Below are positions 1 through 16,006 of a stretch of DNA of 64,000 nucleotides, piece after piece. The translations under genes were made by a program, and so were the position numbers. Position 1 is the first letter of the stretch, and every line of letters begins with the position of its first letter. The DNA comes from a plasmid, in the sequence record NZ_CP118990.1; one strand, given 5' to 3'. The notes beneath the pieces were generated by a model. That model made no database searches. It was not told where the DNA came from and saw nothing but the letters and a program-made list of their open reading frames with translations.

Positions 1-459
1 GCCCAGAACGAAAAAATCCAGCAACCCCTTTATCAGGTAGGGATTCCCCAATCCATCGAACACTGCAAAAGGGGCTTGGTAAGCGGGCATCTCCCGCAAG
101 CGTCGTTTGGTCGGTCCTCCCTTGAGCTTGATCTTCACATAGCGTCCTTTGCCGTTGGGGGCAAACATCGCCGGAGATAGTTTCTCGGGAGTATGCCGAT
201 CTGCTCTGACGTAGCTGCCGACAGTCAAGCCAACGGCCATCGTGACACCGAATCTCATTGCCGAGGCATGGAAGACACCAAGTTGGTCGTTATAGAGAAG
301 GTAGTTGCTCATTTCCTGCAAGAGTTCTTCCCTGCTGGCAAGTGGGGAGCGCTGGCTCAGAGCCTCAAAAACCAAAGCATCAAGAGTTGGGGGGTAGTCA
401 GTTAATACCACCGGGGTCTTTAACGACATGACCAGGCGAAAGGGTTCAAATTCGAACAT
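1..459 (-). CDS. Partial cas-operon gene running off the window edge; candidate type IV Cas7/Csf2-like (or Cas5/Csf3-like) subunit
   Basis: Minus-strand ORF open to position 1. Its ATG (457-459) overlaps the dinG stop codon (459-461) as TGATG, i.e. translational coupling. GGAGG lies about 11 nt upstream. N-terminus MFEFEPFRLVMSLKTPVVLTD. Family assignment is inference from operon context only. Confidence 0.35.
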   Translation of the reverse strand, partial: MFEFEPFRLVMSLKTPVVLTDYPPTLDALVFEALSQRSPLASREELLQEMSNYLLYNDQLGVFHASAMRFGVTMAVGLTVGSYVRADRHTPEKLSPAMFAPNGKGRYVKIKLKGGPTKRRLREMPAYQAPFAVFDGLGNPYLIKGLLDFFVLG

Positions 460-2408
460 CAGAAGTAAACCTCCAATGGAGTTGCAGGTGATTGCTCGCC
501 GTCAGTTAACAGCCCTTTGGCCTGCCGGTACTGTTGCAGAAACCGAACGGGAATGATGTTTCGCAGGATGGCGTGTTTGGACGACAAATCGTGAGACAGT
601 GGGAAACGGGGATCGAGAATATCGACTTCAATGCAATCGTCAGGTGAACGGATCCCGCGGCCAATGGCTTGTCGCATCAACCGAATAACGGCGTTTTGAG
701 TACGCATATACTCCTGCTTGTAGAGCTGTTTACTCAGGTCAGTCTTCTTGGTCTTCTTGTAGAAACTTACCAACGCTTCGACTTCGGAAGTGCGTGGTTG
801 GCCGTAGGCAATTCGAGTGATCATCAGGCGATCGAATCCAACTGAGCCAGCGTCATCGGTGATATTGAGCCCGGTATGGCCCGCAGCGGTGATCATTACT
901 CCCCGGCCATGATGTCTGCATACCTTCTTGAACTCTTCAATCAATGATTTGAGTGGGGTGCCACGCTGGTGGACCAGCACCTGCCGATGCTCAATTTGAG
1001 CCAAAACTGCGGCCAATTTACGGCTCTCTTCATGTGAAGCTGTCAGCACAACCACCCGTCCGCATCGGTTGGTGATCTGATGTGCGACTGCTTGCAACCA
1101 TTTTTCAGAAAGGGCAGGGGCATTCCCCTCAGAGGACGGTCTTGAGTAGATAGCCGGGAACGAGGGGCCCGCCAGAGTCAGGGTCATGCTCCCATATTTT
1201 TTCGGGGAGAAAAGGGCAATGGCGCCGAGCATGGTGTCATCAATACCAAGTTCCATTCGCAACGAAGTGGTACCATTCACTGGCTCAGGCGTGATACTCA
1301 GTGTGCCGGAGGTGAGGAGAACAGACTCAAAAGCTGAGGTCGCGTATTTCCCGAAGAACCGAACAAACCACGGGGAGAGTGAGACGATGGCCGGTTCCCG
1401 GCGTATCAGTGAAACGCCGATCCCCATGGACGAGGTTTGCATCATCAGGAGCTGCTGCTGCAAAGATGTTGAGACATCCTTATCCAGGTTATTCAACCGG
1501 CAAATCTTCTCGATCTTTCCAATGGTGGCCCGCGCCAGTTCCGCCAGCTCGGTATCCCAGGCATATTGCTGCATCCCCAGCCGCTCTTGGATTGTCTTAA
1601 TTGAATTAGCAAGAGGGGCTAATTGCCGAGCTGATAGTTGCTCGCCCAACTGGGAGGCGACACGAACAAGATTCAGGCGCCGCTGAGTCCATTCTTGCAA
1701 CCGATTCACCAGGGCATCAGCTTCATCAACAATCAGCACTGTCGGCCGTGACTTATCGGCCAAAAGCGCATTATTTCGCAGCATGTCTACTGCGATCATG
1801 GCATGAGTTGTGACCACGATGTCGCATTTAGATTCAGCCTGTTGCTGTTCGTCAAATGCCTCATTTTCACACTCAGCCGTCAGGCAAATTTGAGAGGCCA
1901 ACAAGTCGCAGGGGAGTCCGCCAAACTCATCCTCAAATTCTGCAATCGTCCCTGACCAGTCACGCAAAGTAGCCACTTCGCGCTCCTCTAGGGCTGACAG
2001 AGAGCGGTTGGTGAGGGCAATATTGATCCGCTTTGGCGATACGAAATTGACCCGTCCGAGAAGACGGCCGATAGACAACGGTCTATGTCCATAATGACGG
2101 GCGACTTTGGTCAGCAGCACACTGTCTTTTTCGAGAAGTTGTTGCATCAGTGCGTGGCTGTGTGTTGCGACGATAACCCGAGGGCGACGTGGGTCGCAGA
2201 GTGCAAACTGCATGGCTGGCAAGAGATAGCCCAGCGACTTTCCGAGGCCGGTGTCAGCGTGAAGAAGCGATATTTTCCCGGTGTCAGCCAGCACTTGCTC
2301 AATCATTAGCGCATATTGGGTCTGCTCATCCCGAGCGATGAGGCCGCCAGCGGCCATCAGCTCTCCGAACTTGGCTGTGTGGATCCCGTCCTCTGGCAAG
2401 GGGCTCAT
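459..2408 (-). CDS. csf4: CRISPR-associated DinG/Csf4 helicase (SF2, Rad3/XPD-like) of a type IV-A system
   Basis: 649 aa. Walker A-like LHADTGLGKS, DEAD-like VLIVDEAD, helicase motifs V/VI near C-terminus (ITAAGHTG..., GRGIRSPDD). Overlaps cas6 by 4 bp. CRISPR array nearby. Confidence 0.85.
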   Translation of the reverse strand: MSPLPEDGIHTAKFGELMAAGGLIARDEQTQYALMIEQVLADTGKISLLHADTGLGKSLGYLLPAMQFALCDPRRPRVIVATHSHALMQQLLEKDSVLLTKVARHYGHRPLSIGRLLGRVNFVSPKRINIALTNRSLSALEEREVATLRDWSGTIAEFEDEFGGLPCDLLASQICLTAECENEAFDEQQQAESKCDIVVTTHAMIAVDMLRNNALLADKSRPTVLIVDEADALVNRLQEWTQRRLNLVRVASQLGEQLSARQLAPLANSIKTIQERLGMQQYAWDTELAELARATIGKIEKICRLNNLDKDVSTSLQQQLLMMQTSSMGIGVSLIRREPAIVSLSPWFVRFFGKYATSAFESVLLTSGTLSITPEPVNGTTSLRMELGIDDTMLGAIALFSPKKYGSMTLTLAGPSFPAIYSRPSSEGNAPALSEKWLQAVAHQITNRCGRVVVLTASHEESRKLAAVLAQIEHRQVLVHQRGTPLKSLIEEFKKVCRHHGRGVMITAAGHTGLNITDDAGSVGFDRLMITRIAYGQPRTSEVEALVSFYKKTKKTDLSKQLYKQEYMRTQNAVIRLMRQAIGRGIRSPDDCIEVDILDPRFPLSHDLSSKHAILRNIIPVRFLQQYRQAKGLLTDGEQSPATPLEVYF

Positions 2409-2977
2409 AACACCTCCAGGTTCGACAACTGGCCGTAGCCAAATACCCGCTTACGGCCAATGCCATAAACAACAGCCTGCTCGGCCAGCGCAACATCCTT
2501 GATCTCAGCAACGACACTGACCGGGTTGCACTGGAGGGTGAAGCTCTGTTTTTTCTTGAGGTAGCGCTCCAGGTAGGGGCTGTTGGCTGAGTGGCTCTGG
2601 AGCGAGAGTCCTGCCCCTTCGCACTGCCTGGCTAGAACATCAGGCAAGATGGCCATCGGCAGATTCATCGACCGTTTTTTGGTGGTGCCTGGGATCGGAT
2701 GCTTGATTGGGAAGCAGAAGTTGAGGTTGAACATGACTGCATCTGCCACGTTCAGTTCAAGTTGTACGGCTTGTTCGCCAGCTAGGCCAAGTTGCGTTGC
2801 CGATCGCAAGTAGATAACGGTTGTGTTGGGCTCATGAGGGTGAGCAATCCGCCGCCAGCTATAGGGGACTTTACAGCGCAATGTCTCCTGTACCAAATAA
2901 TCAAGACGCTGGTGGACCAGATACGGAAGAGACGGGTCAGTTTCACGCAGTTTGAGGGTGTTTTCATAGTAAATCAT
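2405..2977 (-). CDS. cas6: Cas6-family crRNA endoribonuclease (Csf5/Cas6e-like)
   Basis: 190 aa. C-terminal glycine-rich loop GIGRKRVFGYG matches the Cas6 GhGxxxxxGhG signature. 4-bp overlaps with both neighbours (operon). Confidence 0.7.
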   Translation of the reverse strand: MIYYENTLKLRETDPSLPYLVHQRLDYLVQETLRCKVPYSWRRIAHPHEPNTTVIYLRSATQLGLAGEQAVQLELNVADAVMFNLNFCFPIKHPIPGTTKKRSMNLPMAILPDVLARQCEGAGLSLQSHSANSPYLERYLKKKQSFTLQCNPVSVVAEIKDVALAEQAVVYGIGRKRVFGYGQLSNLEVL

Positions 2978-3810
2978 TGGAGCTTGTCCGCGATGTGAAT
3001 CAGCTTGAGGCGCTGGTGGGGGTCCGCCGGTAAAGTGCGAAATATCGTGCCGAACGATGGTTTTTTGCTGATCTGTTCACTGGCCTGCTGGGGGGTAATG
3101 CGTCCGTTCGAGAGGCCAACGACTAACTTATTGAAGGCGTTGCGTTCCTGACTTGTTAGTGTGTTGAGCCCCCCTGATAGCCGCATGGCCGCATCCAGAT
3201 TAACCGTGCATTCGACTCGGGTAACTGAATCCATACCGGCGTCACTACAGCAGTAGAGCGCCTGCGGTGACAGAGATATGGTCAACCCTCGCATAAGCGC
3301 CGCGGTTTTACGTCCGAAAGATTCGATGTATAGCAGAGGGAATTTTGCATTCTCTGCGATCCATGGCAGGTGACCACCAACGGTAATCTTCACCACATCG
3401 ACGTGCTCTAAAAATGATGCAGGGAACTTGTCATACACCCCTGGTGGGGCTAGGAGCGTTGAACGCTGAGGCTTACCTGGGACATCTGCAATTTCGTGCA
3501 CCCAACCGACACCACTCATCATTCCAAAGCGCTGGCCCACCTTCTTGTCGCTTTTCCCGGCAGTTCGCTCATTACCCATGATGTTGGGGTCGGTCACAAA
3601 CATGGCCTGGCAAGGAGCACAGTGGTTGAACGGCGTTTTATAGCTATCCAGACCTTGATAACCCACACGGTCAAACGAGCTTGCAGGGCGCTTGCAGCAA
3701 GAACATGCCGCACCAGTCTTTACAGCTTCTCCCAAGGCTGGAGCCAAAATATGGGTGAGGTTGGCATAAAGAAGATCAATTGGATGTTGCACGTCACCTC
3801 CGAGAAACAT
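2974..3810 (-). CDS. csf1: Type IV effector-complex subunit, candidate Csf1 (Cas8-like large subunit with zinc finger)
   Basis: 278 aa. N-terminal CxCC...CxxC (CSCCKRP...HCAPCQ) as expected for the Csf1 zinc finger. First gene of the minus-strand operon. Identity is inference; could alternatively be Cas5/Csf3. Confidence 0.45.
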   Translation of the reverse strand: MFLGGDVQHPIDLLYANLTHILAPALGEAVKTGAACSCCKRPASSFDRVGYQGLDSYKTPFNHCAPCQAMFVTDPNIMGNERTAGKSDKKVGQRFGMMSGVGWVHEIADVPGKPQRSTLLAPPGVYDKFPASFLEHVDVVKITVGGHLPWIAENAKFPLLYIESFGRKTAALMRGLTISLSPQALYCCSDAGMDSVTRVECTVNLDAAMRLSGGLNTLTSQERNAFNKLVVGLSNGRITPQQASEQISKKPSFGTIFRTLPADPHQRLKLIHIADKLQ

Positions 3811-3930
3811 TCTGAAACAGTTTCACATAAGATAATAGATTTCTTTTTTTTGTAAAGAGGCAGGTCCTTGATAATCGACCGTTTTTAGTGGCCTGGTAGA
3901 AACGGGTGCTGTATAAGCTAAAACCTCGGT

Positions 3931-4055
3931 ATGCCGCCCTTTGGCGGGGGTTAGCGGTTTGAGCCAGCGCAAAAACAAGCCAGAGCAGAGCCATGCTGGA
4001 GTGCCTCCCAGTGGCGGGGGTTAACAGATGAATGGCAACCTCTGGGGTTGAACGG
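3931..4055 (+). repeat. Degenerate CRISPR-repeat-like motifs (orphan mini-array relic) in the intergenic/promoter region upstream of csf1
   Basis: ccgccctttggcgggggttagcgg (3931-3957), cctcccagtggcgggggttaacag (4001-4027) and a weaker ctctggggttgaacgg (4038-4055). Compare the array consensus ccccgcaggcgggggttaacgg at 6955-7650. Same polarity as the main array. Confidence 0.5.
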
Positions 4056-4097
4056 AGGTAAAGCTCCGGGGGCCATAGCCCCTATGTTGGGAGCGCC

Positions 4098-4817
4098 ATG
4101 TTCAGTGACATTTTACCAACGGAACAAAGTTCTGGTGTTATTTCAGGGGGAAGTATGAAGGGTAATATAATTTCATGGAAAGATGAAAAAGGCTTCGGCT
4201 TTATAAAAAATGATGAGAATGGCGAACATATATTTTTTCATATATCGAGCGTTATAAAAGGGACGAGGCAGCCTATTGTTGGTGATGCAGTTACATTTGA
4301 TGTAGGGGTTGATTCCAGCAACCGAAAAAAAGCAAAAGATATTTTTATTGAAGGGGTGTCATTTACCAATATCCCAAGGCGAGTATTTACGGAAAAGGTT
4401 AAGCGCGACCGTTTCGATTATTATTGTTACGTCGCGATAGTGTTATCAGTGGCAATAACACTCGCTGTGTATATTAAAATGGGGCAGCCTCGACTGGCAT
4501 TATTTCCCGCCGCCGTTGCTATAATGCTGTTTTTGTATATCTCCGTCCGTACTAAAAAACCTGCAAATGACATATTCTCATGCGGGAAATGCTCATCAGT
4601 GGTTAGACATGACGCAAGAACCATTCGGGCATGGAATAAGGGTGCGTGTAAATTATATTGCAGAACCTGCAATCAGAACTGGCATCGTGAAAAGCCACAA
4701 AGGGATAGCACTAAAAAATATAATCGCCCTCAGAAGTCTGGATGTCTAGGGGTATTATTATTTATAACATTCGTGCCGGTATTTTTAATTTCAAGCATCA
4801 TCACCTTACTGGTGTAG
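4098..4817 (+). CDS. Cold-shock-domain (CspA-like) protein fused to a C-terminal membrane / Cys-rich zinc-ribbon region
   Basis: N-terminus KGNIISWKDEKGFGFIK...HIFFHISSV carries the CSD RNP1/RNP2-like motifs. Two hydrophobic helices (YYCYVAIVLSVAITLAVYI, ALFPAAVAIMLFLYI). CGKC...CRTC motif. Locally AT-rich. Confidence 0.6.
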   Translation: MFSDILPTEQSSGVISGGSMKGNIISWKDEKGFGFIKNDENGEHIFFHISSVIKGTRQPIVGDAVTFDVGVDSSNRKKAKDIFIEGVSFTNIPRRVFTEKVKRDRFDYYCYVAIVLSVAITLAVYIKMGQPRLALFPAAVAIMLFLYISVRTKKPANDIFSCGKCSSVVRHDARTIRAWNKGACKLYCRTCNQNWHREKPQRDSTKKYNRPQKSGCLGVLLFITFVPVFLISSIITLLV

Positions 4818-4969
4818 AAAGAAATGTTGAAGCCTTGTTGCCTGGACTATTAACTGAATGAGCCTCATCATAATCATGGGTGAGGCTTTTTTAATGGCCC
4901 GATAAAGGGCGAAAAGTGTCGCTCTCAAATTGCCACGCACTGACCGCGTTTCCCAAGTCGATGACACTG

Positions 4970-5105
4970 AATAGTGTACAAACTTTATTATGCAAGTGAC
5001 TGATCTGTAGTGTCCGTTGTGTACAAACTTTACTGTCCGAGTCACCGCTACGCCGTGTTTGCTGCGTACAAACTTCATTGTCACTGTACTGCTTGCGCAG
5101 CCTAA
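4970..5105 (+). repeat. Three direct iteron-like repeats with exact 45-bp phasing (core GTACAAACTT)
   Basis: Cores at 4976, 5021 and 5066. Units: tagtGTACAAACTTtatt, ttgtGTACAAACTTtact, ctgcGTACAAACTTcatt. Confidence 0.6.
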
Positions 5106-5288
5106 CGGCGCCTGCGGCCACAGTACAGACAACCCCGCATTGCGTACTTCTCCATGCCCTCCTTCACACACAGAGGCTCAAGCGTGTCTCTGTGTGTCTC
5201 TACTTATTAAAATGATTCTTTGAAAAAGTAGTGTTTATAAAATAGGATAGTTGGCAGGAAAGTCCTTCATTTTTCACGGAGAGAACGC

Positions 5289-5819
5289 ATGAGAGAGGTG
5301 CACTTCATTAGCCAGGTCGAGGCCGAAAAACTGGCGCCGGTTGCCGGTGCGGCGATGATCTCGATCACCGACCCGGACAAACCGGAGGCGGCCCTGGGAG
5401 ATTGGCAACTCTTGTATCGGGACAGCTTTTACGATGGTGGCTACAGTGAGGACACCATCCGTACCATGAAAGGGTCTTTTCGGATGAGCTACGCATCCTA
5501 CATTGACTCCCATCAGGCGAAGAACCTATCCAACTACATCGATGAGCTGGTGCAGAGCGGCATCAGCCAGATCTTTGTTCACTGCTACTACGGGGAATCC
5601 CGAAGTGGCGCGATTGCTTTGTATCTGTGCAACAAACATGGATTCACCTCGAACAAGCCCATCACCAAGCCTAACAGGACGGTCTACGATCTCCTCTGCT
5701 CCCCTTTGAAATATGAAGCACTGATACAGAGTTACGAAACACAAGATGCTGCGCCTACCGAGAGTATCTACACCAAGATATGGGATTTATTGCTCGTGGC
5801 TATCGGTGTTAGGAGGTAA
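5289..5819 (+). CDS. Cys-based protein phosphatase-like protein (CX5R P-loop)
   Basis: 176 aa. VHCYYGESRSGA matches the HCxxGxxR(S/T) signature of the PTP/DUSP superfamily. Confidence 0.45.
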   Translation: MREVHFISQVEAEKLAPVAGAAMISITDPDKPEAALGDWQLLYRDSFYDGGYSEDTIRTMKGSFRMSYASYIDSHQAKNLSNYIDELVQSGISQIFVHCYYGESRSGAIALYLCNKHGFTSNKPITKPNRTVYDLLCSPLKYEALIQSYETQDAAPTESIYTKIWDLLLVAIGVRR

Positions 5820-5821
5820 CT

Positions 5822-6826
5822 TTGCACCAACGGAACAACCGCGACACCACTGAACTTTCACACGCGAAAGTCATTGTCTTGCCAGAACAAACCTCAGGTG
5901 GAGGCCTCCCGCAAGTCACCGGGGGGCTCAGAAGCGCACAAGATAATCCGGCAGTTGCATACCTGATCAGCCTTGGCTCCAGGCGCAGTCGGCAAACCAT
6001 GGGCTCATTTCTCAGCATTGTTGCTCGGATGATCGGGTACCAAAACCTGCGTGATTGCGCGTGGGAGTCGATGCGGCGGCATCATGTCCAAGCTGTGATC
6101 CAAATGCTCAGTGACTCTGACCGAGCGCCAGCTACGATCAATACCTACCTGGCAGCGCTGAAAGGAGTTGCCCTGGAAGCGTGGACAATGAAGCTGATTG
6201 ATACCGACAGTTACCAGCATATCAAGCAGGTGCGTTCGGTGAGAGGCTCTCGTTTACCCAACGGGCGGGCCCTCGAAAAGCACGAGGTCAGAGCCCTTTA
6301 TTTCACATGTGAAAACGATCGGAGCTCCAAAGGGCTGCGTGACGCAGCCATCCTTGCTGTTTTAGTCGGGTGCGGACTTCGGCGCTCAGAGGTTGTCGCC
6401 CTCGATATGGAATGTGTCATCACCAGGGATCAGGCACTTCGTGTGCTCGGTAAGGGCAATAAAGAACGCATCGCCTATGTGCCTGACGGGGCATGGCAGC
6501 GGCTTATGCGGTGGGTGGAGGAGGTTCGTGGTGATCAGCCGGGATCGCTGTTTCAGCGGATCAGGCGGTTTGATGATGTCACCGCCGACAGAATGACTGA
6601 CCAGGCTATCTATCACATTCTTGAAACGAGAAGGATTGAGGCGGGGCTGGAAAAATTCGCTCCTCATGATCTCCGCAGAACCTTTGCATCGGCCATGCTG
6701 GATAATGGCGAGGACATCATCACGGTCAAGGATGCGATGGGCCATGCCAGTGTCACGACCACGCAGAAGTATGATCGTCGGGGAGATGAGCGATTGAAAC
6801 AGGCCAGTCGGCGACTCGATTTTTGA
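5822..6826 (+). CDS. Tyrosine site-specific recombinase (phage integrase family, XerC/XerD-like)
   Basis: C-terminal catalytic motifs: VGCGLRRSEVVALD, GKGNKERIAYVP, HDLRRTFAS, GHASVTTTQKY. The true start may be an internal Met (e.g. MGSFLSIV). Confidence 0.8.
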   Translation: MHQRNNRDTTELSHAKVIVLPEQTSGGGLPQVTGGLRSAQDNPAVAYLISLGSRRSRQTMGSFLSIVARMIGYQNLRDCAWESMRRHHVQAVIQMLSDSDRAPATINTYLAALKGVALEAWTMKLIDTDSYQHIKQVRSVRGSRLPNGRALEKHEVRALYFTCENDRSSKGLRDAAILAVLVGCGLRRSEVVALDMECVITRDQALRVLGKGNKERIAYVPDGAWQRLMRWVEEVRGDQPGSLFQRIRRFDDVTADRMTDQAIYHILETRRIEAGLEKFAPHDLRRTFASAMLDNGEDIITVKDAMGHASVTTTQKYDRRGDERLKQASRRLDF

Positions 6827-6829
6827 GTC

Positions 6830-6954
6830 GGAAGACCAATGTTAATCAGTTGCGCACTCAGAATTTAAGAGGTAAATTTCAGCCACCAATCCTCAAGTGT
6901 GCGAACATCGCTGAACGTGACCTAATCTTGATGGTAATTGTTGACTTGGTAAGT
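6830..6954 (+). promoter_or_regulatory. Putative CRISPR leader
   Basis: About 125-bp AT-richer segment directly 5' of the first repeat. Polarity inferred from the repeat orientation (stem then TTAACGG 3' handle) and from the degenerate terminal repeat at the other end. Confidence 0.4.
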
Positions 6955-7650
6955 ATCGCCCCCCCGCAGGTGGGGGTTAACGGGCGTGTAAAGCGTCCAA
7001 CGTGACTTACAGAAAATCGCCCCCCCGCAGGTGGGGGTTAACGGAGTGGATGCATTTGCTGACTTCCACCGATGAATCGTCCCCCGTGCCTGGGGGTTAA
7101 CGGTACTCGGCCTGGCACAACATGGACCTCACCCGATTTCTCCCCCGCAGCTGGGGGTTAACGCCGCGAGGGGAGCTGTTGCTATAGCGGGAATGAATCC
7201 CCCACCGCAGGCGGGGGTTAACGGCGTCAGCACATCACACAGCTATTGAGCACCAGATCGATCCCCCGCAGGCGGGGGTTAACGGTTTTCGATGATGTCG
7301 GTGGCGTTTGCCATCATATCGCCCCCCGCAGGCGGGGGTTAACGGACGCTGATAACGCATATCGACGACGGATTTGAATCACCCCCCCGCAGGCGGGGGT
7401 TAACGGCCCGCGGGATAGAGAAGTGGTGCCATCAGCGCATCTCTCCCCCGAGCCTGGGGGTTAACGGTGCCCTTTTTGTGCACAAACAAAAAAATCAAAA
7501 TCCATCCCCCTGTTACGGGGGTTAACGAAGCGGGACGTCGTGGTGCTGTGCTGCGGCTGCATCTCCCCCCAGCAGGCGGGGGTTAACGTTAGCTTCACAC
7601 CAGGCCTTGATAGCATCGCCGATCTATCCCTCGCGACTGGGGGTTATCGG
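6955..7650 (+). CRISPR. CRISPR array: 12 repeats of 29 bp (consensus ATCGCCCCCCGCAGGCGGGGGTTAACGG) and 11 spacers of 31-33 bp
   Basis: Period 61 bp. Repeat starts near 6955, 7016, 7076, 7137, 7198, 7259, 7320, 7381, 7442, 7503, 7564, 7622. Palindromic stem CCCCCGC/GCGGGGG. Many repeats carry substitutions that keep stem pairing. Terminal repeat is degenerate (GGGGGTTATCGG). Confidence 0.9.
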
Positions 7651-7657
7651 GAGGAAG

Positions 7658-7834
7658 CATGGCACAACAGAACGTTTTCCTTCTTCGATTGAGGGTTATG
7701 CGCGAAATGGCCGCCGACACCGACTCGGTGATCTCTGCCGTCACGGCCGAGCTGCCAGTCGGTTTCCCTGAGCACATTAGCAAGGCCATTTTTTCTGGGT
7801 TGTCGGCTCAAGCAGCCAAGCTTCTGAGAGGGTG
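7658..7834 (+). CDS. Small ORF (58 aa) whose start lies inside the terminal CRISPR repeat
   Basis: ATG at 7658 is preceded by GGGAGG formed from the last repeat. Below the 60-aa cutoff of the ORF track. Stop is 4 bp before the next ORF. Speculative. Confidence 0.3.
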
Positions 7835-7838
7835 AGAA

Positions 7839-8336
7839 ATGGCTGAAATGAGCAATTTTGGGGAAAGCTTCAAGCTTTATTCCGACGGGCAACGAGATCC
7901 TGTCAAGCGCACAGGCCTGAACGTCCAGTACACAGAGACTCGGGCCAACTACCCGACAATCAGCATCGAGATCGCTCCCATCCGGGCGGCAGGAGCAAAA
8001 GCAGACTGGGAGCAGAAGATCACAGTACAACTGACCAGGGCAGAGCTGACCGCGTTCTGCGGTGTGATGTTTGGGCTCAGGAAGGATGCCACAGGGTCAT
8101 ACCATGGTGACGCCAACAACAAGAGCTTCGCGACATACTGCAACGGCAAGTCCGGCGTCGCCATCCTTCTCATGGCACGAGGGAACCAGTACCAGCACCT
8201 CATTACACCCGATGACCGAATGGAGCTAGCTGTATTCGCGATAAGGAGGTTGGCTGAGGCATGGAAGGTCACCCCTTCTGATGCGATTGCGATGCTCCGT
8301 CAAGGGGCGTGGATGAGCAAGAATCAGGTAAATTAG
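7839..8336 (+). CDS. Hypothetical protein (165 aa)
   Basis: RBS-like GAGGGTGAG upstream. Followed by an intrinsic terminator. Confidence 0.45.
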   Translation: MAEMSNFGESFKLYSDGQRDPVKRTGLNVQYTETRANYPTISIEIAPIRAAGAKADWEQKITVQLTRAELTAFCGVMFGLRKDATGSYHGDANNKSFATYCNGKSGVAILLMARGNQYQHLITPDDRMELAVFAIRRLAEAWKVTPSDAIAMLRQGAWMSKNQVN

Positions 8337-8352
8337 AATGGGTTAGATAATG

Positions 8353-8379
8353 AAAATCCCGCTTGAGCGGGCTTTTCGA
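8353..8379 (+). terminator. Rho-independent terminator
   Basis: aaaatCCCGCTTGAGCGGGcttttcg: GC hairpin followed by T-run. Confidence 0.55.
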
Positions 8380-8589
8380 AATTTGGGGTGGCCCTGCATG
8401 ACAGGGCCAGTACGAACCTAGTGTCATCACCAGTAAGGTAGCTGGGAGAGGACGGAGCCTAGAAGTAGAGATCCCGCTAGGTCCTCTTATTTTCAATTGG
8501 CTACTCTTGTCTGCTCTTGATTTGCACTTGTTTAATACTGATTCCGCCGCGGTTACTCTCCTCCTGCACCTGACCAAACGGAGAGAAAT

Positions 8590-9136
8590 TATGCGCTATC
8601 ACTCACCTCTGCACGACCCGCTGACTCAAGATGAACTCAATGCACTTAGAGCCTCACTCTCTGCAAAAGAGTTCCAGCATGACTTATTCCGAGCATTCCT
8701 GTTCGTATGCGAGACAGGGTTGAGTTGGGAGGATGTTTACCTCCTAAAGTGGACGCAAATCGATAGGGAAAACCACCTGCTGGTTCACGACTATGAACGA
8801 ATCAATGGACATCAAACCCAACGCCTTTCGCAGTTCGCATTGAATGTTTTGCCCGAGCAGAGCAGCAGCAAGGTCTTTCCTGATCTACATTTCGAGCTCA
8901 TTCAAGACCGATATGGGGAATGGTGCTCGTCTGACCTATGGGTCTGGGGGAAGAGATCAAATATCAAGCGCGGGTTTTGTCTTGAGGCTGCTGGGGCCAC
9001 CTTCGTTACCAAAATGACAGCTCAACACGTTGATGAGCATGAGCTCGCAAAAATGCTGAACATTACCGAGCTCGACTTACGTTGGATTTACCCAATACGT
9101 TCATTTAACCCGATTGACCTAATGTTCCTCTCCTAA
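8590..9136 (+). CDS. Hypothetical protein with weak, degenerate tyrosine-recombinase-like catalytic-domain features
   Basis: ORF track gives 8507-9136. Likely start MRYHSPL at 8590 (GGAGAGAAATT upstream). TGLSWEDVYLLKWTQID resembles integrase box I, but canonical HxxR/Y are not evident. Confidence 0.3.
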
Positions 9137-9173
9137 ACGTTGTCCTGAGCGAACAAGGAAACCTGATCGCATC

Positions 9174-10286
9174 ATGCCGCTAAAGTGCTTGCACCACCAC
9201 ACCACCATCTTCGCCTTTGATTTCGATGCAGCAGGTTGGGAGAAACTGAAAGCCAGCAACCGAGCAGATGCCGGCCTCATAATGACATGCTGCCAGGCCC
9301 GAGCGGTCCCGAAGGTATCCAAGCTCGGCACCCGGTTCTTTGCACATCACAAGAGTGGCGAATGTACCAGCACACCGGAGACAGCGGAGCACCTATGGGC
9401 CAAGACCATCGTCTGTCAGGCTGCCCGAGCGGCAGGGTGGACAGCCGATACGGAGGTAAGGGGCCAAACTCCGGCCGGTGAAGACTGGGTGGCCGATGTG
9501 CTATCCACCAAAGGCAGCGCTAAGGTCGCCATCGAGATCCAGTGGTCACGCCAAGGCACCGAAGAGACCCAGCGCCGTCAGCGTCGCTATGCCGACTCTG
9601 GAGTGCGAGCATTATGGCTACTGCGTCACCCTGACCTGCTGGTGGAGCGGGGCACGCCATCGTTCTTGTTGGATGTCCGAGCGAGTGAGTCAGCAGCCTT
9701 CGTGCGACTCCCATCAAGCCAATTCGATCCGCGCTGGGTCACCAACCGCAACAAGAGCGAAGCGGAATATTGGCAGCAAACCATCGCGCTGGAGACGTTC
9801 GTCCGTGGAGCCCTGACCGGCTCATTAAAGTTCGCCCCGGCGATTGACCAGCCCATACCGGTGACCATCAGTGCCACAAAGATCCGGTGCTGGCGCTGTA
9901 AGCGTGAGACCTGGACGGTACAAGGGCTTACCCTGGAGGTCAGTACGCGGTTCGCGGGTCACCCAGACCTGCACACGAGCCTTGAAGAGCTCGATAGCGG
10001 GGAGGAGACTGCACCGTGGCTGGCTAACTTGTTCCCGGCCGCACTGTTGAAGCAACACGGGATAGGCGTGATCAAGCCGCGCTTTAGCCGCACAGCAGGA
10101 TGCAGCTATCTATCGAACGGCTGTACACACTGCGACGCCCTCCAGGGTCGCCACTTTGACCACGACGATTACCAGGAAGCGACCGACGTCTGCCAGTATG
10201 AAGTCACCCTGAGTAGTGAGTTGCTAGAGCAACTGGCTACCGTGGGCAACGATATTGCCTATCGCTGGTGGTTTGCAGAGAGGTAA
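9174..10286 (+). CDS. Hypothetical protein with PD-(D/E)xK-like core and C-terminal Cys-rich zinc ribbon
   Basis: 370 aa. EDWVADVL...VAIEIQW, then CWRCKRETW...CSYLSNGCTHCD. Confidence 0.35.
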   Translation: MPLKCLHHHTTIFAFDFDAAGWEKLKASNRADAGLIMTCCQARAVPKVSKLGTRFFAHHKSGECTSTPETAEHLWAKTIVCQAARAAGWTADTEVRGQTPAGEDWVADVLSTKGSAKVAIEIQWSRQGTEETQRRQRRYADSGVRALWLLRHPDLLVERGTPSFLLDVRASESAAFVRLPSSQFDPRWVTNRNKSEAEYWQQTIALETFVRGALTGSLKFAPAIDQPIPVTISATKIRCWRCKRETWTVQGLTLEVSTRFAGHPDLHTSLEELDSGEETAPWLANLFPAALLKQHGIGVIKPRFSRTAGCSYLSNGCTHCDALQGRHFDHDDYQEATDVCQYEVTLSSELLEQLATVGNDIAYRWWFAER

Positions 10287-10306
10287 ACGTGGCCGGTTTC
10301 TTCATA

Positions 10307-10592
10307 AATTAGACCATCATGCAGCGAGGGGTAGAAAGCCCCACACCAACCCCCGAGGCCTACCTTTTACCCCGGCGCCGCTCCACTGAGCGCGTCTCTT
10401 CTTTCTCTCTCTTTTTCTCTCTTTCTCAATCTAATCTCCCGCGAGCGCGGGCCTAGCACAGGGGCTGAGCTCGTTCGGGGGTAAGGCTCACCGGGTCCAA
10501 CATTGTCACGATAAAACATCGGGCTCACCCTCCCCCGACGCCGCGCAGCGGCGGCGATCATCTCTTATACCCCTCGTTGCATGATGGTCTAA
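10307..10592. repeat. MITE-like element: 24-bp terminal inverted repeats flanking 238 bp that include a CT-rich low-complexity tract
   Basis: ATTAGACCATCATGCAGCGAGGGG (10307-10330) versus CCCCTCGTTGCATGATGGTCTAAT (10569-10592), one mismatch. CT tract at about 10391-10440. Confidence 0.6.
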
Positions 10593-10648
10593 TATTGCCT
10601 ATTCTCTAACCAATATTCTATCGGTACAAACCCCAGGTAAGGACCTCC

Positions 10649-11530
10649 ATGCAGACTAACTTCATCTCCGAACAGTACACAGCCATCACCCGTGACCTCG
10701 ATCGCCTCGCAACTCTCATCCGGCGCCTGCCCCATCGCGACGCCCGTGTCGCGGCCATCACACCCACGGCCAAAGGCTCCGAAAGCGAGCCTACAACCAA
10801 CATTGTTGTCCTGGAACAAACCGGGAGCGATGCCCTGGCGCTCGCCGCCGACTGCTACCGGGATCTCCACATCATCCCCCAGCTCTCCCAGAAGTCGGCC
10901 CGCCGAACCGTCGGCGTATTGTGGCTCTCCCCTTCCCAGAGCGGCGCGGCCGCCACTGACGAGCTCCGGCAGCTGGTGGACCGCATCAACACCGCCAAGG
11001 CCGGTATCGAGACGTTCATCGTCTCCAACTACGGCACCCGCCAGGAGCGTTTTGAGGCACTCCGGGCCGAATGCCCCGGCGTGATGACCCTGCACCTGTA
11101 CCGGCAGATCCGGTGCTATGCCGAGGGGGACGTGGATTCTATCCGGTTCACCTGGCAGCAGAAGGACTCGCTCAAACGGCCCGACAAAGATGAGCTGATG
11201 CGCCGGATCCGGGTTGAACTGGAGAAAGCAGGGCCAGATTTTCGGCCGCAGCTGGAGGAGCTGCTCGACAAGATTTCCGGCACCCCCGAGGCAGCGCTGC
11301 GCGAGCGCCGGGAGGTAAAGGTGCAGCCGGTGGCAAACATCATGGCCGCGGGGGCACTGAGAACGGTGACGGCACCGATGCCTCTGATCCTGCTCCAGGA
11401 TGCTGATGCCAAGATCAAGATGCTCAAGTCGTTTGACCCGAAGGCAGGGCGCAAAACGCGGAACGACCGGGTGGAATCCCGTGTTATCGGGACATTTTGC
11501 GGGGTCGCCATCGAGGCATTTCCGTTGTGA
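10649..11530 (+). CDS. tus: Tus-like DNA replication terminus-site-binding protein homologue
   Basis: 293 aa. C-terminal half aligns by eye with E. coli Tus: IRFTWQQK...ELEKAG vs LRFGWANK...QLEKSL, and REVKVQPVANI...APMPLILL vs RPVKVQPIARV...CPTPLIAL. High-GC gene. Confidence 0.55.
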   Translation: MQTNFISEQYTAITRDLDRLATLIRRLPHRDARVAAITPTAKGSESEPTTNIVVLEQTGSDALALAADCYRDLHIIPQLSQKSARRTVGVLWLSPSQSGAAATDELRQLVDRINTAKAGIETFIVSNYGTRQERFEALRAECPGVMTLHLYRQIRCYAEGDVDSIRFTWQQKDSLKRPDKDELMRRIRVELEKAGPDFRPQLEELLDKISGTPEAALRERREVKVQPVANIMAAGALRTVTAPMPLILLQDADAKIKMLKSFDPKAGRKTRNDRVESRVIGTFCGVAIEAFPL

Positions 11531-11668
11531 TGACATGACGGGATAAGCAAGGTGGGCCGTTGAAAACGGCCATATCCGGGGTTTGGGGAGCAATGGAACC
11601 AAAAACCAACGTAAGCTCTGAATCCCACCGTAAAGGGGCTTTCCGATCTCCAGCTCACCCGCCAGGCA

Positions 11669-12067
11669 TTACTCTCTGATCAGTGCCTCGATGATCGGGC
11701 AGATCGTTCCGCCGTCTCCCGCATCACATTGCTGCACCAGTTCGCCTAACAGTTGCTGCATGACGACCAAGTCGGCCATCTTCTGCTCGATCAACGCGAG
11801 CTTGCGTGCAGCCCGTGCTCGCGTTTCGGCACAGGCGCACGACTCATCCAGCGTCAGCAGTCCACCGACTTCCGAGAGCGTGAAACCCAGCGCCTGAGCC
11901 CGCTTGATGAAACGCAGTCGCTTCACCATGTCCACCGGATAGCGCCGATGGCCACCCAAGGGTTTGGCTGGTTCATCCAGCAGCCCGCGTCGCTGGTAGT
12001 AGCGGATCGTCTCGACGTTCACCCCGGCGGCGTCTGCCAGCTTGCCAATGGTCAGCTCTGTGGCCAT
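11669..12067 (-). CDS. merR: MerR-family metal-responsive transcriptional regulator, divergent from merT
   Basis: [30 protein letters not shown]-terminal Cys cluster (DESCACAE, QQCDAGDGGTICP). Confidence 0.75.
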   Translation of the reverse strand: MATELTIGKLADAAGVNVETIRYYQRRGLLDEPAKPLGGHRRYPVDMVKRLRFIKRAQALGFTLSEVGGLLTLDESCACAETRARAARKLALIEQKMADLVVMQQLLGELVQQCDAGDGGTICPIIEALIRE

Positions 12068-12787: not shown

Positions 12788-13000
12788 ATGAGCGCCATTG
12801 TCCTTGAGTCCGTGCTGACTTGCCCGCGCTGCGGCTTCGCCAAGCCGGAAACCATGCCCACGGACGCCTGCCAGTTCTATTACGAGTGCAGCAACTGCAA
12901 GGCGCTGCTGCGCCCCAACCCAGGGGATTGCTGCGTTTTCTGTTCGTTCGGCTCGGTGAAGTGCCCGCCGATCCAGCAGCAGCTTGGGTGTTGCTCATAG
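12788..13000 (+). CDS. Small Cys-rich GDCCVxC-motif protein (mer-locus associated)
   Basis: 70 aa with about 10 Cys, including GDCCVFC. Confidence 0.5.
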   Translation: MSAIVLESVLTCPRCGFAKPETMPTDACQFYYECSNCKALLRPNPGDCCVFCSFGSVKCPPIQQQLGCCS

Positions 13001-13006
13001 CGTTTA

Positions 13007-13044
13007 GGGGGATCACAGGTCGTCGTCTGGATTACGCAGTGGCC
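13007..13044 (+). repeat. Candidate Tn3-family terminal inverted repeat
   Basis: GGGGGATCACAGGTCGTCGTCTGGATTACGCAGTGGCC. Starts with G-run and overlaps the tnpA 3' end, as is typical. No matching inverted partner found in the window. Confidence 0.4.
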
Positions 13045-16006
13045 GCAGCTCGCCGCGCGCAACTTCTTCCGGTACCGCAAAGGAATACCGCCCGAGCATG
13101 TTGATGTGCTCGTAGATCAGCGGCGATAGCCGGGCCAAATCCTCTTCCAGCACTGGATAGCCGTGCTGCTTGAGCCGTTCCACGGCCGCCGTCATGTAGA
13201 GGGTGTTCCACAGCACGATGATGTTCACCACCAGGCCCAGAGCACCGAGCTGGTCTTCCTGGCCTTCGCGGTAGCGCTGGCGGAGCTCGCCGCGTTTGCC
13301 GTGGAACACGGCGCGGGCCAGGCTGTGCCCGCCTTCGCCTCGGTTCAACTGGGTCAGGGTGGCGCGGCGCTTGGACTCGTCGTCGATATAGGTCAACGTG
13401 TGCAGAGTCTTTTCGATCCGCCCGAATTCGGCCAGCGCCTGGGCCAGCCGGGTGGGTCTATCTCCCGTTTGCAGCGTGCGCATGATGCCAGTCGCCGGCA
13501 CCCGGCCGAGTTTGAGCGAGCCGGCCAGGCGCAGCAGGTCGTCCCAGTGCTCGGCGATCAGGTCGAGTTTGACCGACTGGCGGGCCAGCCCGTTGAGCTT
13601 GCCGTAGTCCGCGTCCGGGCGCGTGCGCCAGAAGCGGGTACCGCCGACATCGGCCAGCCGCGGACTGAAGTGGTAGCCAAGTAGGCGGAAGAGCCCGAAC
13701 ACCACATCGCTGTAGGCCCCGGTGTCGGTCATGATTTGCGTCGGCTGCAACTCGGTCTGCTGTTCCAGCACGACCGCCAGCAACACCAGGCTGTCGCGCA
13801 GCGTGCCGGGCACGGTGATGGCGTTGAGGCCGGAGAATTGGTCGGAAATCAGGTTGTACCAGGTGACACCCCGGCCGGTGCCGAAATACTTCGGATTGGG
13901 GCCGGCATGCACGGTGCGCACCGGTATGACGAAGCGCATGCCATCGGCGGAGGCGACCTCGCCGCCACCCCAGACTTGGGCCAGTTCCAGTTGGCTTTGC
14001 GCTCCGACCAGGATGGCGTTAGCCGCTGACAGGGTGTCGTCGCGGATATAATTCTGGCTGACCCAGGACAGCCGGTCACGGCGCAGCGCCGGGTTGTCGG
14101 TGCGGATCAAGGGCTCCAGGCCGGTGTTGCAGGCCCCGCCCAACAGCACCGCGCAGAGGCTGGTGACCAGGTTGTCGGCGCGTGCATTGCGTTCGGAGAC
14201 ATGGGTGAAGGCCTCGGAAAAGCCAGTGCGGGCGGCGATTTCCAAGAGGATTTCCGGCAGATCGACACGCGGCATCAGGTCAGACACGGCCGCCCGCAGT
14301 TGCAGCAACGAGCAGGGCTCGTCCAGCTTGTCCAGCGCCCCGAGCGACAGTTCGGTCTTGCCCTCGGTGTTCTCGCTCAGTTGAATCGCCGGGTTGTCGG
14401 GCAGGCGCGCGGCTACTGCCAGCCAGGTTGCATCCAGCTCGACGGACAAGGCGTCCAGGGTGGTTTTGGCGTCGATGGTCACGCCCAGTGACCGGCAGAT
14501 GATCGGTCGCGCCGCCAGCCATTCGGCACCGTCGAGCAGGCCAAGGCGCGGGTCGGCATAGCGCCAACTGGGCGAGACGAAGACATCGCGGCGGCGCAGG
14601 GCCGTGCGCAGCGCATCGAGCGTGCAGAACACATAGGCACCCATGTCGAGGGAGCCATCTTCGCGGGTGATGTGCTTCTGCCAAGCCTTGGCCACGATCT
14701 CCTGCGGCGCGTCATCCTCTGGCTTCCGGCGCGGCAGGTTCAGTTGCAGCCACTCCAGACTAGCCGCCACGCCCTTGCCGGCCGGGCTGAAGCCGAAGCG
14801 GATGTGCTTGAGCAGGTCGGGCAGGAAGCGGCGCACGCTGCGGTAGCGCGCTTCCAATGCAAGAAAATAGACGTCATCTACCGGGCGGATCAGCGCGTTG
14901 ACCTCTTCCAGGGCCTTTTCCAGGGTGGTCCTCGGCAGGTCGTTGAACAGCCGGGCGCGCACGTTGTCATCGCTGATCGAGCTGTCCAGCACGACCTTGC
15001 ACGCGGCGGCGAGCGTCGCGGCCGACCGATCCAGGTCTTTCAGGCTGCGCATGCGGGCTTTCTTGTCGGCCTTCTCCGCGTTGCTGAACAGGTCGCGCAG
15101 CAAGGCCTCCAGGACTTCCAGTGCGTCGTCGTGCGCAGTCGCCTCCAGGCAGAGTGCGAAGGCCACCAGTGTCGCCATCCGCCGCGACGCCGGCAGCCGA
15201 TTAATCGCGGTGACCTTGGCCGTGTTGGCGAAGCGGGCCAGGGCGGCGATACGGCTGGGAGGGATGTGCGCCGCCGCCGGCAAGGTGATGCCGATGCCGC
15301 GCACGTCATCGAGCCGGCGCAGTGCCCGAATCAACGCGGGGCCACTGACCATGACCGGGCCGGAGCGCAATTGATCCAGCCGGGAGCTGCGGTTGCCTTC
15401 GGCCACCGTCAGCAAGTCTTGCAGTTGCAATCGCTGTTCCTCAGTCACGCTGCGGCCCAGCGTAAACCAGAGGCGTTCTTCGACCCGACTGCGCAACTGG
15501 GCGATAAAGCGCTCTAGTTGAGACACACCAGGCAGGAGGACTTTCTGTGTGAACAGCCACGAGGTGGCTCGCTCAAACAGCACTCCCGGCCGGTCGGTGC
15601 CCGTCCAGCAGAGGGCATACAGCCAGCGGCTCAAGCGAAAGCCGATGCCCGGATCGGTGAAATGACGATAGCCAAAGCGGTTCTGAATATCGGTGGCATG
15701 TATCCAGCGGCGATGATCGCTATAGCGCTGGAGGCAGTCGGGGTCTGGAATCGCCAGTTGTCGGCAAAGCACCTGCAGGACTTCCACCGGCACGGCGGCG
15801 GGCTTGTCCGGCAGAACGCCAACGAAGCGGACGGTGGTCAGCAGAACGGCATAACCCAGACGGTTATGGTTACCCCGCAGCACCTGGATGGCTTCACGGT
15901 CTTCATCGCTCAGGTGGAAGTAACGTTCCAGCTCTTCACGGCTGGGCGAATCAACATAGCGGCCAAAACCGTCGCGTTGCTCTTGAGTCAGAAAACCGAC
16001 CGGCAT
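13013..16006 (-). CDS. tnpA: Tn3-family transposase TnpA
   Basis: 997 aa. Tn3-type DDE transposase. C-terminus similar to the TnpA tail fused in the 40927-41547 remnant. Confidence 0.95.
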   Translation of the reverse strand: MPVGFLTQEQRDGFGRYVDSPSREELERYFHLSDEDREAIQVLRGNHNRLGYAVLLTTVRFVGVLPDKPAAVPVEVLQVLCRQLAIPDPDCLQRYSDHRRWIHATDIQNRFGYRHFTDPGIGFRLSRWLYALCWTGTDRPGVLFERATSWLFTQKVLLPGVSQLERFIAQLRSRVEERLWFTLGRSVTEEQRLQLQDLLTVAEGNRSSRLDQLRSGPVMVSGPALIRALRRLDDVRGIGITLPAAAHIPPSRIAALARFANTAKVTAINRLPASRRMATLVAFALCLEATAHDDALEVLEALLRDLFSNAEKADKKARMRSLKDLDRSAATLAAACKVVLDSSISDDNVRARLFNDLPRTTLEKALEEVNALIRPVDDVYFLALEARYRSVRRFLPDLLKHIRFGFSPAGKGVAASLEWLQLNLPRRKPEDDAPQEIVAKAWQKHITREDGSLDMGAYVFCTLDALRTALRRRDVFVSPSWRYADPRLGLLDGAEWLAARPIICRSLGVTIDAKTTLDALSVELDATWLAVAARLPDNPAIQLSENTEGKTELSLGALDKLDEPCSLLQLRAAVSDLMPRVDLPEILLEIAARTGFSEAFTHVSERNARADNLVTSLCAVLLGGACNTGLEPLIRTDNPALRRDRLSWVSQNYIRDDTLSAANAILVGAQSQLELAQVWGGGEVASADGMRFVIPVRTVHAGPNPKYFGTGRGVTWYNLISDQFSGLNAITVPGTLRDSLVLLAVVLEQQTELQPTQIMTDTGAYSDVVFGLFRLLGYHFSPRLADVGGTRFWRTRPDADYGKLNGLARQSVKLDLIAEHWDDLLRLAGSLKLGRVPATGIMRTLQTGDRPTRLAQALAEFGRIEKTLHTLTYIDDESKRRATLTQLNRGEGGHSLARAVFHGKRGELRQRYREGQEDQLGALGLVVNIIVLWNTLYMTAAVERLKQHGYPVLEEDLARLSPLIYEHINMLGRYSFAVPEEVARGELRPLRNPDDDL

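Follow-up and report, generated by a model that had tools for sequence, protein, structure and literature searches.

The stretch of DNA analyzed here covers 64,000 nucleotides (nt) of the plasmid record NZ_CP118990.1 (in the following, the window) and carries a CRISPR-Cas locus (short palindromic repeats, clustered and regularly interspaced, with associated genes) at positions 1–7650. Judged by sequence comparison, this part of the window probably (about 0.85) contains most of a functional-looking type IV-A3-like CRISPR-Cas system, which resides on an Aeromonas conjugative multidrug-resistance plasmid. The assignment builds on features that were observed directly, namely the protein identities, the gene order, the anatomy of the array, the homology of its leader, two insertion sites, and one match between a spacer and its target including the protospacer adjacent motif (PAM). 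The loci used for comparison comprised six extended public contigs around dinG (L005–L010; L010 is SRR7796540), the Klebsiella IV-A3 loci L003 and L004, the plasmids pWP8-S18-CRE-01_1 of A. caviae (L001) and pAeme3 of A. media (L002), several A. veronii/A. caviae contigs (L013, L015, L016, L023, and L025; L013 and L016/L017 belong to A. veronii, L023 to A. caviae), and the CRISPR-free plasmid pAsa4.

Four translationally coupled open reading frames (ORFs) on the minus strand occupy the positions 1–3810. The first gene in the direction of transcription, csf1 (2974–3810), encodes a Cas8-like zinc finger protein of 278 amino acids when read from the ATG codon. It was assigned by PADLOC to Csf1_2_IVA3 (2.2e-65) and aligned via residues 8–276 with chain G of the PDB entry 8RC2 (4.7e-57), and its translation shows the zinc finger motif CSCC...CAPC. 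The GTG start codon at 3792 (272 amino acids) is favored both by gene callers and by the alignment with the structure, and the 272-amino acid form was also called in L005–L009. The second gene, cas6 (2405–2977, 190 amino acids), encodes a Cas6e-like protein detected by the PADLOC model Cas6_0_IVA3 (1.5e-23). Cas6e models of PADLOC matched more weakly, the Pfam match to CRISPR_assoc (3.8e-4) was below the cutoff, and no PDB sequence match was obtained at E ≤ 0.01. A BLASTP alignment with the Klebsiella IV-A3 Cas6 (29% identity, E 2e-19) places the GxGxxxxxGxG loops of both proteins on top of each other; the C-terminal loop of the window protein reads GIGRKRVFGYG. The third gene, dinG (csf4; 459–2408), codes for a helicase of 649 amino acids, which was identified by PADLOC as Csf4_0_IVA (3.9e-154) and aligned over its full length with chain M of PDB 8S35 (1.4e-97). 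Its translation displays the Walker A (DTGLGKS) and DEAD motifs, in line with the Pfam domains DEAD and Helicase_C_2. The fourth gene, csf3 (cas5; 1–459), is cut by the window edge after the first 153 of 232 codons. This part was assigned to typeIV_Cas5 Csf3gr5 by PADLOC (3.3e-47) and is identical to the N-terminus of a 232-amino acid product in L005. At 461–457, the sequence TGATG contains both the stop codon of dinG and the start codon of csf3. A sigma-70-like promoter for the operon is predicted on the minus strand at 3829–3856 (TTTACA-16-TATCTT, 9 of 12 consensus matches in a consensus scan); the T-rich region is kept in L015 and alignable with L016/L017.

The remaining part of the operon was found in the extended contigs, of which L005 and L006 are 99.98% identical to the window across 8.4 and 11.6 kb, respectively. 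In all six extended loci, the 232-amino acid csf3 and a gene for a 343-amino acid product, csf2, follow downstream of dinG. Both products correspond to subunits of 8RC2 (Csf3, 6.3e-60; Csf2, 1.4e-100). All five cas ORFs are intact and full-length, and Csf1, DinG, Csf2, and Csf3 align over their full length with the solved K. pneumoniae complex (8RC2/8S35). The order csf1-cas6-dinG-csf3-csf2 was also detected in the Klebsiella loci, in pAeme3, and in five further Aeromonas lineages; on the basis of this comparison, it is the standard order of IV-A3. The Cas8-like Csf1 with its zinc finger distinguishes IV-A3 from IV-A2 (PMC7038947). An earlier note on this DNA, made from the sequence alone, had proposed a type IV-A locus from the DinG helicase, a Cas6 with a glycine loop, and a zinc finger gene. 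PADLOC, PDB, and BLASTP comparisons confirmed these three genes, and the assignment can be made more precise as IV-A3-like. The profile searches placed all four ORFs in type IV or IV-A3, including the 278-amino acid ORF (Csf1) and the partial one (Csf3). The note had also concluded from the TGATG overlap that the operon runs past the window edge, which is correct, csf3 being the next gene, and had left the Cas7 and Cas5 partners undecided; these are Csf2 and Csf3, encoded after dinG in contigs 99.98% identical to the window. In contrast, the description of the gene order as non-canonical did not hold, because the comparison had been made with the order of IV-A1. The order is canonical for IV-A3 and matches that in Klebsiella and in all Aeromonas relatives examined.

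Exactly this DinG is encoded by 65 public contigs, the longest of 209 kb, in records labeled Aeromonas and "Gammaproteobacteria". In public records, the genes are only named "helicase C-terminal domain-containing" or "hypothetical", because the NCBIfam and Pfam matches of the cas ORFs are sub-threshold or generic (TIGR03117, DEAD/Helicase_C_2, CRISPR_assoc). No adaptation gene such as cas1 or cas2 and no cas3 was found among the 30 window ORFs scanned, with small ORFs only partly covered, which agrees with the absence of such genes as noted earlier. An Rfam scan of 1–12000 gave zero matches.

The CRISPR array is located on the plus strand at 6955–7650. It is built from 12 repeats, each 29 nt long (consensus ATCGCCCCCCCGCAGGTGGGGGTTAACGG), which alternate with 11 spacers of 30–32 nt at a period of 60–61 nt. 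The repeat aligns with that of the Klebsiella IV-A3 system (GTATTCCCCCCGTGTGCGGGGGTTATCGG), and each copy folds into a hairpin of 5–6 G:C base pairs followed by a 7-nt tail, TTAACGG. The length of this tail equals that of the 5′ tag reported for the IV-A3 structure (PMC11519345), and processing at this site is predicted. The array is preceded by a leader (6827–6954, plus strand) with the motif AACATCGCTGAAyrTG approximately 35–55 nt before repeat 1. The motif is common to the leaders of both pAeme3 arrays and occurs in a looser form in L016/L017. The similarity to relatives without an array at this site (L010, pAsa4, and pRA1) ends exactly at the stop codon of the preceding recombinase gene (6826). 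The two leader-proximal repeats are identical, the distal repeats are diverged, and the last repeat is degenerate. This divergence pattern, the homology to the Klebsiella repeat, the leader motif, and the AAG located 5′ of the protospacer described below all support transcription from the plus strand. The repeats are unusually heterogeneous, with ten distinct sequences in 12 copies, variable loops (GCAG, GTGC, GAGC, and TGTTA), and a preserved stem and TTAACGG tail. No terminator-like site was found between the stop codon of the recombinase gene and repeat 1, so that read-through from the genes upstream could add to the transcription of the array.

The array lies 3.1 kb upstream of the csf1 start and is transcribed away from the operon. 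In this respect, the earlier description of an array of 29-bp palindromic repeats, divergent from the operon and 3.1 kb apart, was accurate, and the comparison with reference IV-A3 repeats gave an alignment with the Klebsiella repeat. The usual IV-A3 layout, with the array after csf2 behind a short leader, was not found here; this layout is typical of the subtype but is not a classification criterion. A second, canonical array after csf2 was considered and rejected, since no repeats were detected downstream of csf2 in L005–L010. All features by which IV-A3 is classified are present, and the placement of the array varies across the clade anyway. The spacer content differs between near-identical plasmids, which, together with the identical leader-proximal repeats, indicates recent turnover.

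Among the spacers, spacer 6 (7286–7316) matches the traA/pilin gene of six Aeromonas plasmids with 29 of 31 nt, and AAG is located immediately 5′ of the protospacer in both flanks that were read. The best match of this spacer is traA of pAeme3 (134653–134985 of the record). Since pAeme3 carries a IV-A3 system as well, two IV-A3 plasmids of one genus appear to be in conflict. Two spacers of a sibling orphan array, described below, match small Aeromonas plasmids with 100% and 97% identity. Self-targeting was rejected, since no window spacer matched elsewhere in the 64 kb, and the search against a phage collection gave zero matches. An AAG PAM, plasmid targeting, and spacer acquisition in trans are published traits of IV-A3 (10.1101/2023.06.23.546257; PMC7038947). 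The spacer directed against the pilin gene of a rival plasmid supports the plasmid-versus-plasmid role that has been proposed for this subtype.

Based on the homology with the Klebsiella IV-A3 system, a mode of action can be proposed in which CRISPR RNA (crRNA) processing, silencing, and acquisition in trans are predicted steps. The array would be transcribed from the plus strand, and Cas6 would cut each repeat hairpin at its 3′ base, so that TTAACGG remains as a 7-nt 5′ tag. Csf1, Csf3, about six copies of Csf2, and Cas6 are expected to assemble on each crRNA, and the complex would bind double-stranded DNA beside a 5′-AAG and recruit DinG. Genes of rival plasmids such as the pilin gene traA would be silenced in this way rather than cut. 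New spacers may be provided in trans by a type I-E-like Cas1-Cas2 of the host acting on the conserved leader.

The separation of operon and array was analyzed by comparison with the plasmid backbones of relatives. Directly before the leader, a pair of backbone genes is located on the plus strand (5289–6826). The first gene (ptp, 5289–5819) encodes a CX5R phosphatase-like protein with the motif HCYYGESRS and a weak Pfam match to DSPc (2e-4, below the cutoff), and the second (xer, 5822–6826) a tyrosine recombinase (Pfam Phage_integrase, 3.4e-32). The region 5198–6826 is 92–99% identical to many Aeromonas plasmids and approximately 81% identical to CRISPR-free IncA/IncC plasmids. In pAsa4, the gene order of the backbone is 241-182-276-213-ptp-xer-hipBA, the numbers standing for genes by product length in amino acids. 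Compared with pAsa4, L013 (DinG 90% identical to that of the window) has the cas operon between the 276- and 182-amino acid genes and an array of eight repeats after xer. The same split layout was found in L015 (DinG 89%), where an array of about 21 repeats is located between xer and hipBA. In the lineage of the window, the 213- and 276-amino acid backbone genes are replaced by a gene of low GC content for a cold-shock/membrane protein. From this gene-order comparison of pAsa4, L013, and L015, we conclude that the operon and the array occupy two distinct intergenic insertion sites and that the intervening genes predate the CRISPR elements. The split layout is retained across lineages with 89–100% DinG identity.

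These results modify the earlier picture of a split, unusual architecture, of which the separation of the array stands and the unusual gene order does not. The genes listed for the interval (a fusion of cold-shock domain and membrane segments, a CX5R phosphatase-like gene, and a tyrosine recombinase whose stop codon directly precedes the leader) are present as described. The interval contains no CRISPR-specific machinery, however; ptp, xer, and the 14-mer repeats described next belong to a pAsa4/IncA-type backbone. A recent insertion into a formerly contiguous locus, which the note had named as a finding that would weaken its view, was rejected, because ptp-xer, and in L013 also the 213- and 276-amino acid genes, are part of the pAsa4 backbone and thus predate the CRISPR parts. 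On the plus strand at 4976–5079, the 14-mer GTACAAACTTYAYT occurs three times at a spacing of 45 nt. The motif likewise precedes the phosphatase-like gene in L001, L013 (5002–5258), L015, and pAsa4, and in L027 at 3944. In all pAsa4-like plasmids, one to five copies of the 14-mer (GTACAAACTTTATT) in both orientations precede the ptp/xer pair. It is regarded as a regulatory motif of the backbone, probably an operator for some plasmid regulator. A function as a CRISPR part or as iterons of a replication origin was rejected, because the same motif is found in CRISPR-free relatives. The repeats formerly described as phased iterons thus exist, but their spacing of 45 nt is not helically phased.

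A second set of repeat units, which is absent from the earlier note, was detected on the plus strand between the csf1 start and the gene for the cold-shock/membrane protein. This vestigial mini-array (3929–4027) consists of two units 70 nt apart, at 3929–3957 (GTATGCCGCCCTTTGGCGGGGGTTAGCGG) and 3999–4027 (GAGTGCCTCCCAGTGGCGGGGGTTAACAG), which enclose a spacer-like segment of 41 nt (3958–3998). Both units belong to the repeat family of the main array, have the same orientation, and fold as hairpins; the conserved leader motif is missing. In L015, this site holds four to five better-preserved units, and the last spacer there agrees with that of the window in 22 of the first 26 nt. No units were detected at this position in L013. 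In L016/L017 and L023, this position is occupied by a full array. The simplest reading, as far as the alignments go, is that the mini-array is a vestige of an ancestral csf1-proximal array, whose leader and array were relocated, or established as a copy, behind xer.

Alternatively, the main array might have arisen in place by off-target integration of spacers at a repeat-like backbone sequence, with no historical link to the cas operon. The array does occupy a backbone intergenic region, in which CRISPR-free relatives carry hairpins of a hipBA-promoter operator resembling GGGGGTTAA, and orphan copies of the array exist in plasmids lacking the cas genes. However, the leader motif shared with other Aeromonas IV-A3 leaders argues for a joint movement of leader and array, the repeats match both the mini-array units beside csf1 and the repeats of the sister systems, and the leader alignment already suggests a position of the array inside the Aeromonas IV-A3 leader/repeat clade. 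A de novo origin at hairpins similar to the hipBA operator is thus disfavored, since the leader is homologous to other IV-A3 leaders, and we consider an origin in place very improbable. As an observation on this region, the operator hairpins downstream of xer in CRISPR-free relatives (L027, 5826–5840) resemble the 3′ half of the repeat (GGGGGTTAA), and the trailer of the L015 array (2830–3130) fades into the operator.

The gene adjacent to the mini-array (4098–4817, plus strand) is a cargo gene rather than a cas gene. It encodes a protein with a cold-shock domain (Pfam CSD, 2.5e-10), transmembrane segments, and a Cys4 ribbon. The start codon is probably located at 4155 (M20), which yields 220 amino acids, because the alignment with the L015 homologue (7510–8172) begins at M20. 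The GC content of the gene is 42–43%, compared to 52–55% for the cas genes. The proteins of the window and L015 share 56% identity, whereas the cas proteins of the two lineages are 85–97% identical, a difference that points to rapid evolution or to replacement of the allele. Elsewhere, homologues are found on chromosomes, unlinked and in unrelated contexts, and a general assignment of this gene to a CRISPR-linked family was therefore rejected.

The vicinity of the mini-array and this gene raises the question of whether both form a module under the control of the Cas proteins. The spacer-like segment could act as a fixed guide, as known from CreTA or CreR, which represses a harmful gene or the cas promoter, or the units could be part of a 5′ leader processed by Cas6, by which the expression of the cold-shock gene would be tied to the cas genes. 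Several observations are in line with this idea: two units capable of forming hairpins flank a spacer-like segment that lies next to the cas promoter and, on the same strand, precedes the cold-shock gene; the arrangement recurs in L015 with the partially conserved last spacer in spite of the diverged proteins; units and gene are present or absent together, L013 lacking both; and the missing acquisition leader motif implies a fixed content. In addition, the cold-shock gene has diverged far more between the two lineages than the cas genes, and its product gave sub-threshold matches to cold-shock effectors of retrons (NCBIfam retron Se72 effector, 26 bits vs. a cutoff of 82 bits; PADLOC CSD_V, E 7e-8). 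Repression is the mode of action of type IV complexes, which would suit a regulatory role (10.1101/2023.03.03.530964). On the other hand, ungapped and seed-plus-PAM scans of the 64-kb window and of L015 for partial targets of this segment revealed none flanked by AAG, the best seeds being at chance level, and the plasmid collection contained no match to it; a regulatory target for this spacer was rejected on the basis of these scans. The arrangement is found in two lineages only, so that the co-occurrence may reflect common descent, and the mini-array spacer is conserved to about the same degree as the non-coding DNA around it. Furthermore, where homologues of the cold-shock gene occur elsewhere, they stand alone on chromosomes and are not linked to CRISPR, and unit 1 forms its hairpin in a register that is 3 nt off that of true repeats. 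Such a module is therefore considered unlikely. If it existed, it would represent a CreTA/CreR-like addiction or autoregulation element, the first described for type IV. The second spacer of the L015 mini-array (spacer B), which is absent from the window mini-array, displays an AAG-flanked partial match inside the recombinase gene (window 6731/L015 4651), with 17–18 of 32 nt and 8 of 10 seed positions, which is near chance.

Several findings weigh against the assignment of the locus as a functional IV-A3-like system. The identity to the characterized Klebsiella proteins is low (29–51% overall; 33–35% for DinG and 29–32% for Cas6), so that functional equivalence is an extrapolation. The PAM was derived from a single window spacer and two protospacer variants. 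The spacer order is rearranged among related arrays with no clean polarity, and acquisition at the leader end is suggested only by the identical leader-proximal repeats. In L010, which is 98.4% identical over 1–6826, unrelated genes (L010, 1–1113) replace leader and array after the xer stop codon. Conversely, L001 and its sibling plasmids NZ_AP019196.1 and NZ_AP022282.1 carry an array of 17 repeats behind the same recombinase and lack IV-A cas genes. In L001, this orphan array is located at 13758–14756; copies of IS66 flank the expected operon site in these plasmids. The orphan-array plasmids share seven trailer-side spacers and one leader-side spacer with the window. With the cas genes but no array at this site in L010 and the array but no cas genes in L001, operon and array are not strictly co-inherited.

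Such losses would also be expected if the locus were a decaying relic, nonfunctional since the separation of array and operon, with the heterogeneous repeats and the mini-array as stages of erosion. The 12 repeats include ten that differ from each other, the last repeat is degenerate, the mini-array is clearly eroded, and losses are seen in relatives, of the array in L010 and of the cas genes in L001 (beside the IS66 copies). Several observations speak against decay, however. Five full-length cas ORFs align end to end with the solved complex, identical DinG proteins occur on 65 public contigs, and the variation of the repeats spares the stem and the 7-nt tag. The identical leader-proximal repeats and the spacer differences among near-identical plasmids indicate recent turnover, and spacers match extant Aeromonas plasmids. 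We regard a relic as quite improbable and favor the interpretation as a IV-A3-like system that is separated from its array. In summary of the sequence evidence, it is a divergent member of the known subtype IV-A3 with modest architectural variation.

The position of the array differs among the Aeromonas relatives. In L016/L017 (DinG 56%) and L023 (DinG 61%), a full array is located directly upstream of csf1 in divergent orientation, and leader and cas promoter are located in one intergenic region. In the sister system of pAeme3 (DinG 62%), one array follows csf2 in inverted orientation and another lies 5 kb upstream; both arrays (2101–2404 and 12865–13325) are on the strand opposite to the cas genes. 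L025 contains a small, co-oriented array after csf2, and no array was detected within 8 kb in L024. In this clade, the array thus behaves as a loosely attached module, which is located beside csf1, after csf2, kilobases away, or in plasmids devoid of the cas genes. Such a loose attachment fits a system whose guide RNAs and spacer acquisition act in trans.

Some further observations concern individual relatives. In L015, the repeats of the main array (2900–4450) have the tail GTTGTCGG, compared with GTTAACGG in the units of its own mini-array, and near-copies of the window spacers 1 and 6 are found at leader-distal positions. The arrays of L007 and L001 display a shuffled spacer order. The shuffling and the near-copied spacers suggest either that arrays have recombined with each other or that the same protospacers gave rise to spacers more than once. 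In L016 (13879–20075) and L017 (5586–11794), the IV-A3 operon with its csf1-proximal array is followed directly by genes encoding a TerB_N/TerB_C protein, a BrxC/BrxD-like ATPase, and a DEAD helicase. This A. veronii three-gene cluster and the operon possibly form a defence island. Searches for further relatives by DinG peptides and by the pattern of the mini-array junction retrieved none in species-representative genomes and JGI metagenomes.

The remaining part of the window is in accordance with a conjugative resistance plasmid, as it harbors genes for Ter, Tn3-family transposases, merA, APH, ABC-F, KfrA, and TraF/TraH/TraG. The conjugative setting proposed in the earlier note is well supported by TraF, TraH, TraG, KfrA, and Ter in the window and by the typing of relatives as MOBH/MPF_F. 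After the array region, a CoiA-like nuclease-domain protein (9174–10286, 370 amino acids) and a Ter/Tus-like replication terminus-binding protein (10649–11530) are encoded by conserved backbone genes of Aeromonas relatives. The region 13013–46564 is a resistance/transposon region with two Tn3-family transposases, a resolvase, a MerA-like reductase, an APH phosphotransferase, an ABC-F protein, a Replicase-family protein, and several insertion sequence (IS) transposases. A gene with an MCP-signaling domain (44344–45414) adjoins an IS in this region.

The subtype IV-A3 has so far been studied on IncHI1B/IncFIB plasmids of Klebsiella and other Enterobacteriaceae, and the literature searched contained no substantive link of type IV-A to Aeromonas plasmids. 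The locus thereby extends IV-A3 to Aeromonas, and the conjugative resistance plasmids related to pAsa4/IncA that carry the system travel between environmental, fish, and clinical bacteria. The definition of type IV-A3 is not changed by this locus; only the mini-array beside the cold-shock/membrane gene could alter it, and a function of this element is unproven.

Among the closest known systems are the IV-A3-like systems of other Aeromonas lineages. They have the same operon, with 40–97% protein identity, and share the repeat family and the leader motif. L013 and L015 also have the same backbone and split layout, while the placement of the array differs from lineage to lineage elsewhere. The CreTA elements of types I and V resemble the mini-array in that a repeat-like/spacer-like/repeat-like unit, which does not acquire spacers, is located by a cas operon and beside a gene of possibly harmful function. 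Unlike in CreTA, no partially complementary target was found in the window or in L015, and the neighboring gene encodes a 220-amino acid protein instead of a small RNA or peptide toxin. A survey of CreTA-type elements reported none for type IV (10.1101/2023.03.03.530964).

The characterized reference is the IV-A3 system of Klebsiella pneumoniae (IncHI1B/IncFIB plasmids such as p1530; structures 8RC2 and 8S35–8S37), which consists of the same five genes in the same order. Both systems have a Cas8-like zinc finger Csf1 and a Cas6e-like Cas6, 29-nt I-E-like hairpin repeats ending in TTAxCGG with spacers of approximately 32 nt, a 5′-AAG by the protospacer, and, as a target, a conjugation gene on a different plasmid. 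Both lack adaptation genes and are located on large conjugative resistance plasmids. In contrast to Klebsiella, the host genus of the window plasmid is Aeromonas, and its backbone is related to pAsa4/IncA, with a MOBH relaxase and F-type transfer genes. The repeats within its array are also unusually heterogeneous. A further difference concerns the array, which is located after csf2 in the same orientation behind a leader of approximately 65 bp in Klebsiella. In the window type, no array follows csf2; instead, the array lies 3.1 kb upstream of csf1 in divergent orientation behind two backbone genes, and a decayed mini-array is found at the cas promoter.

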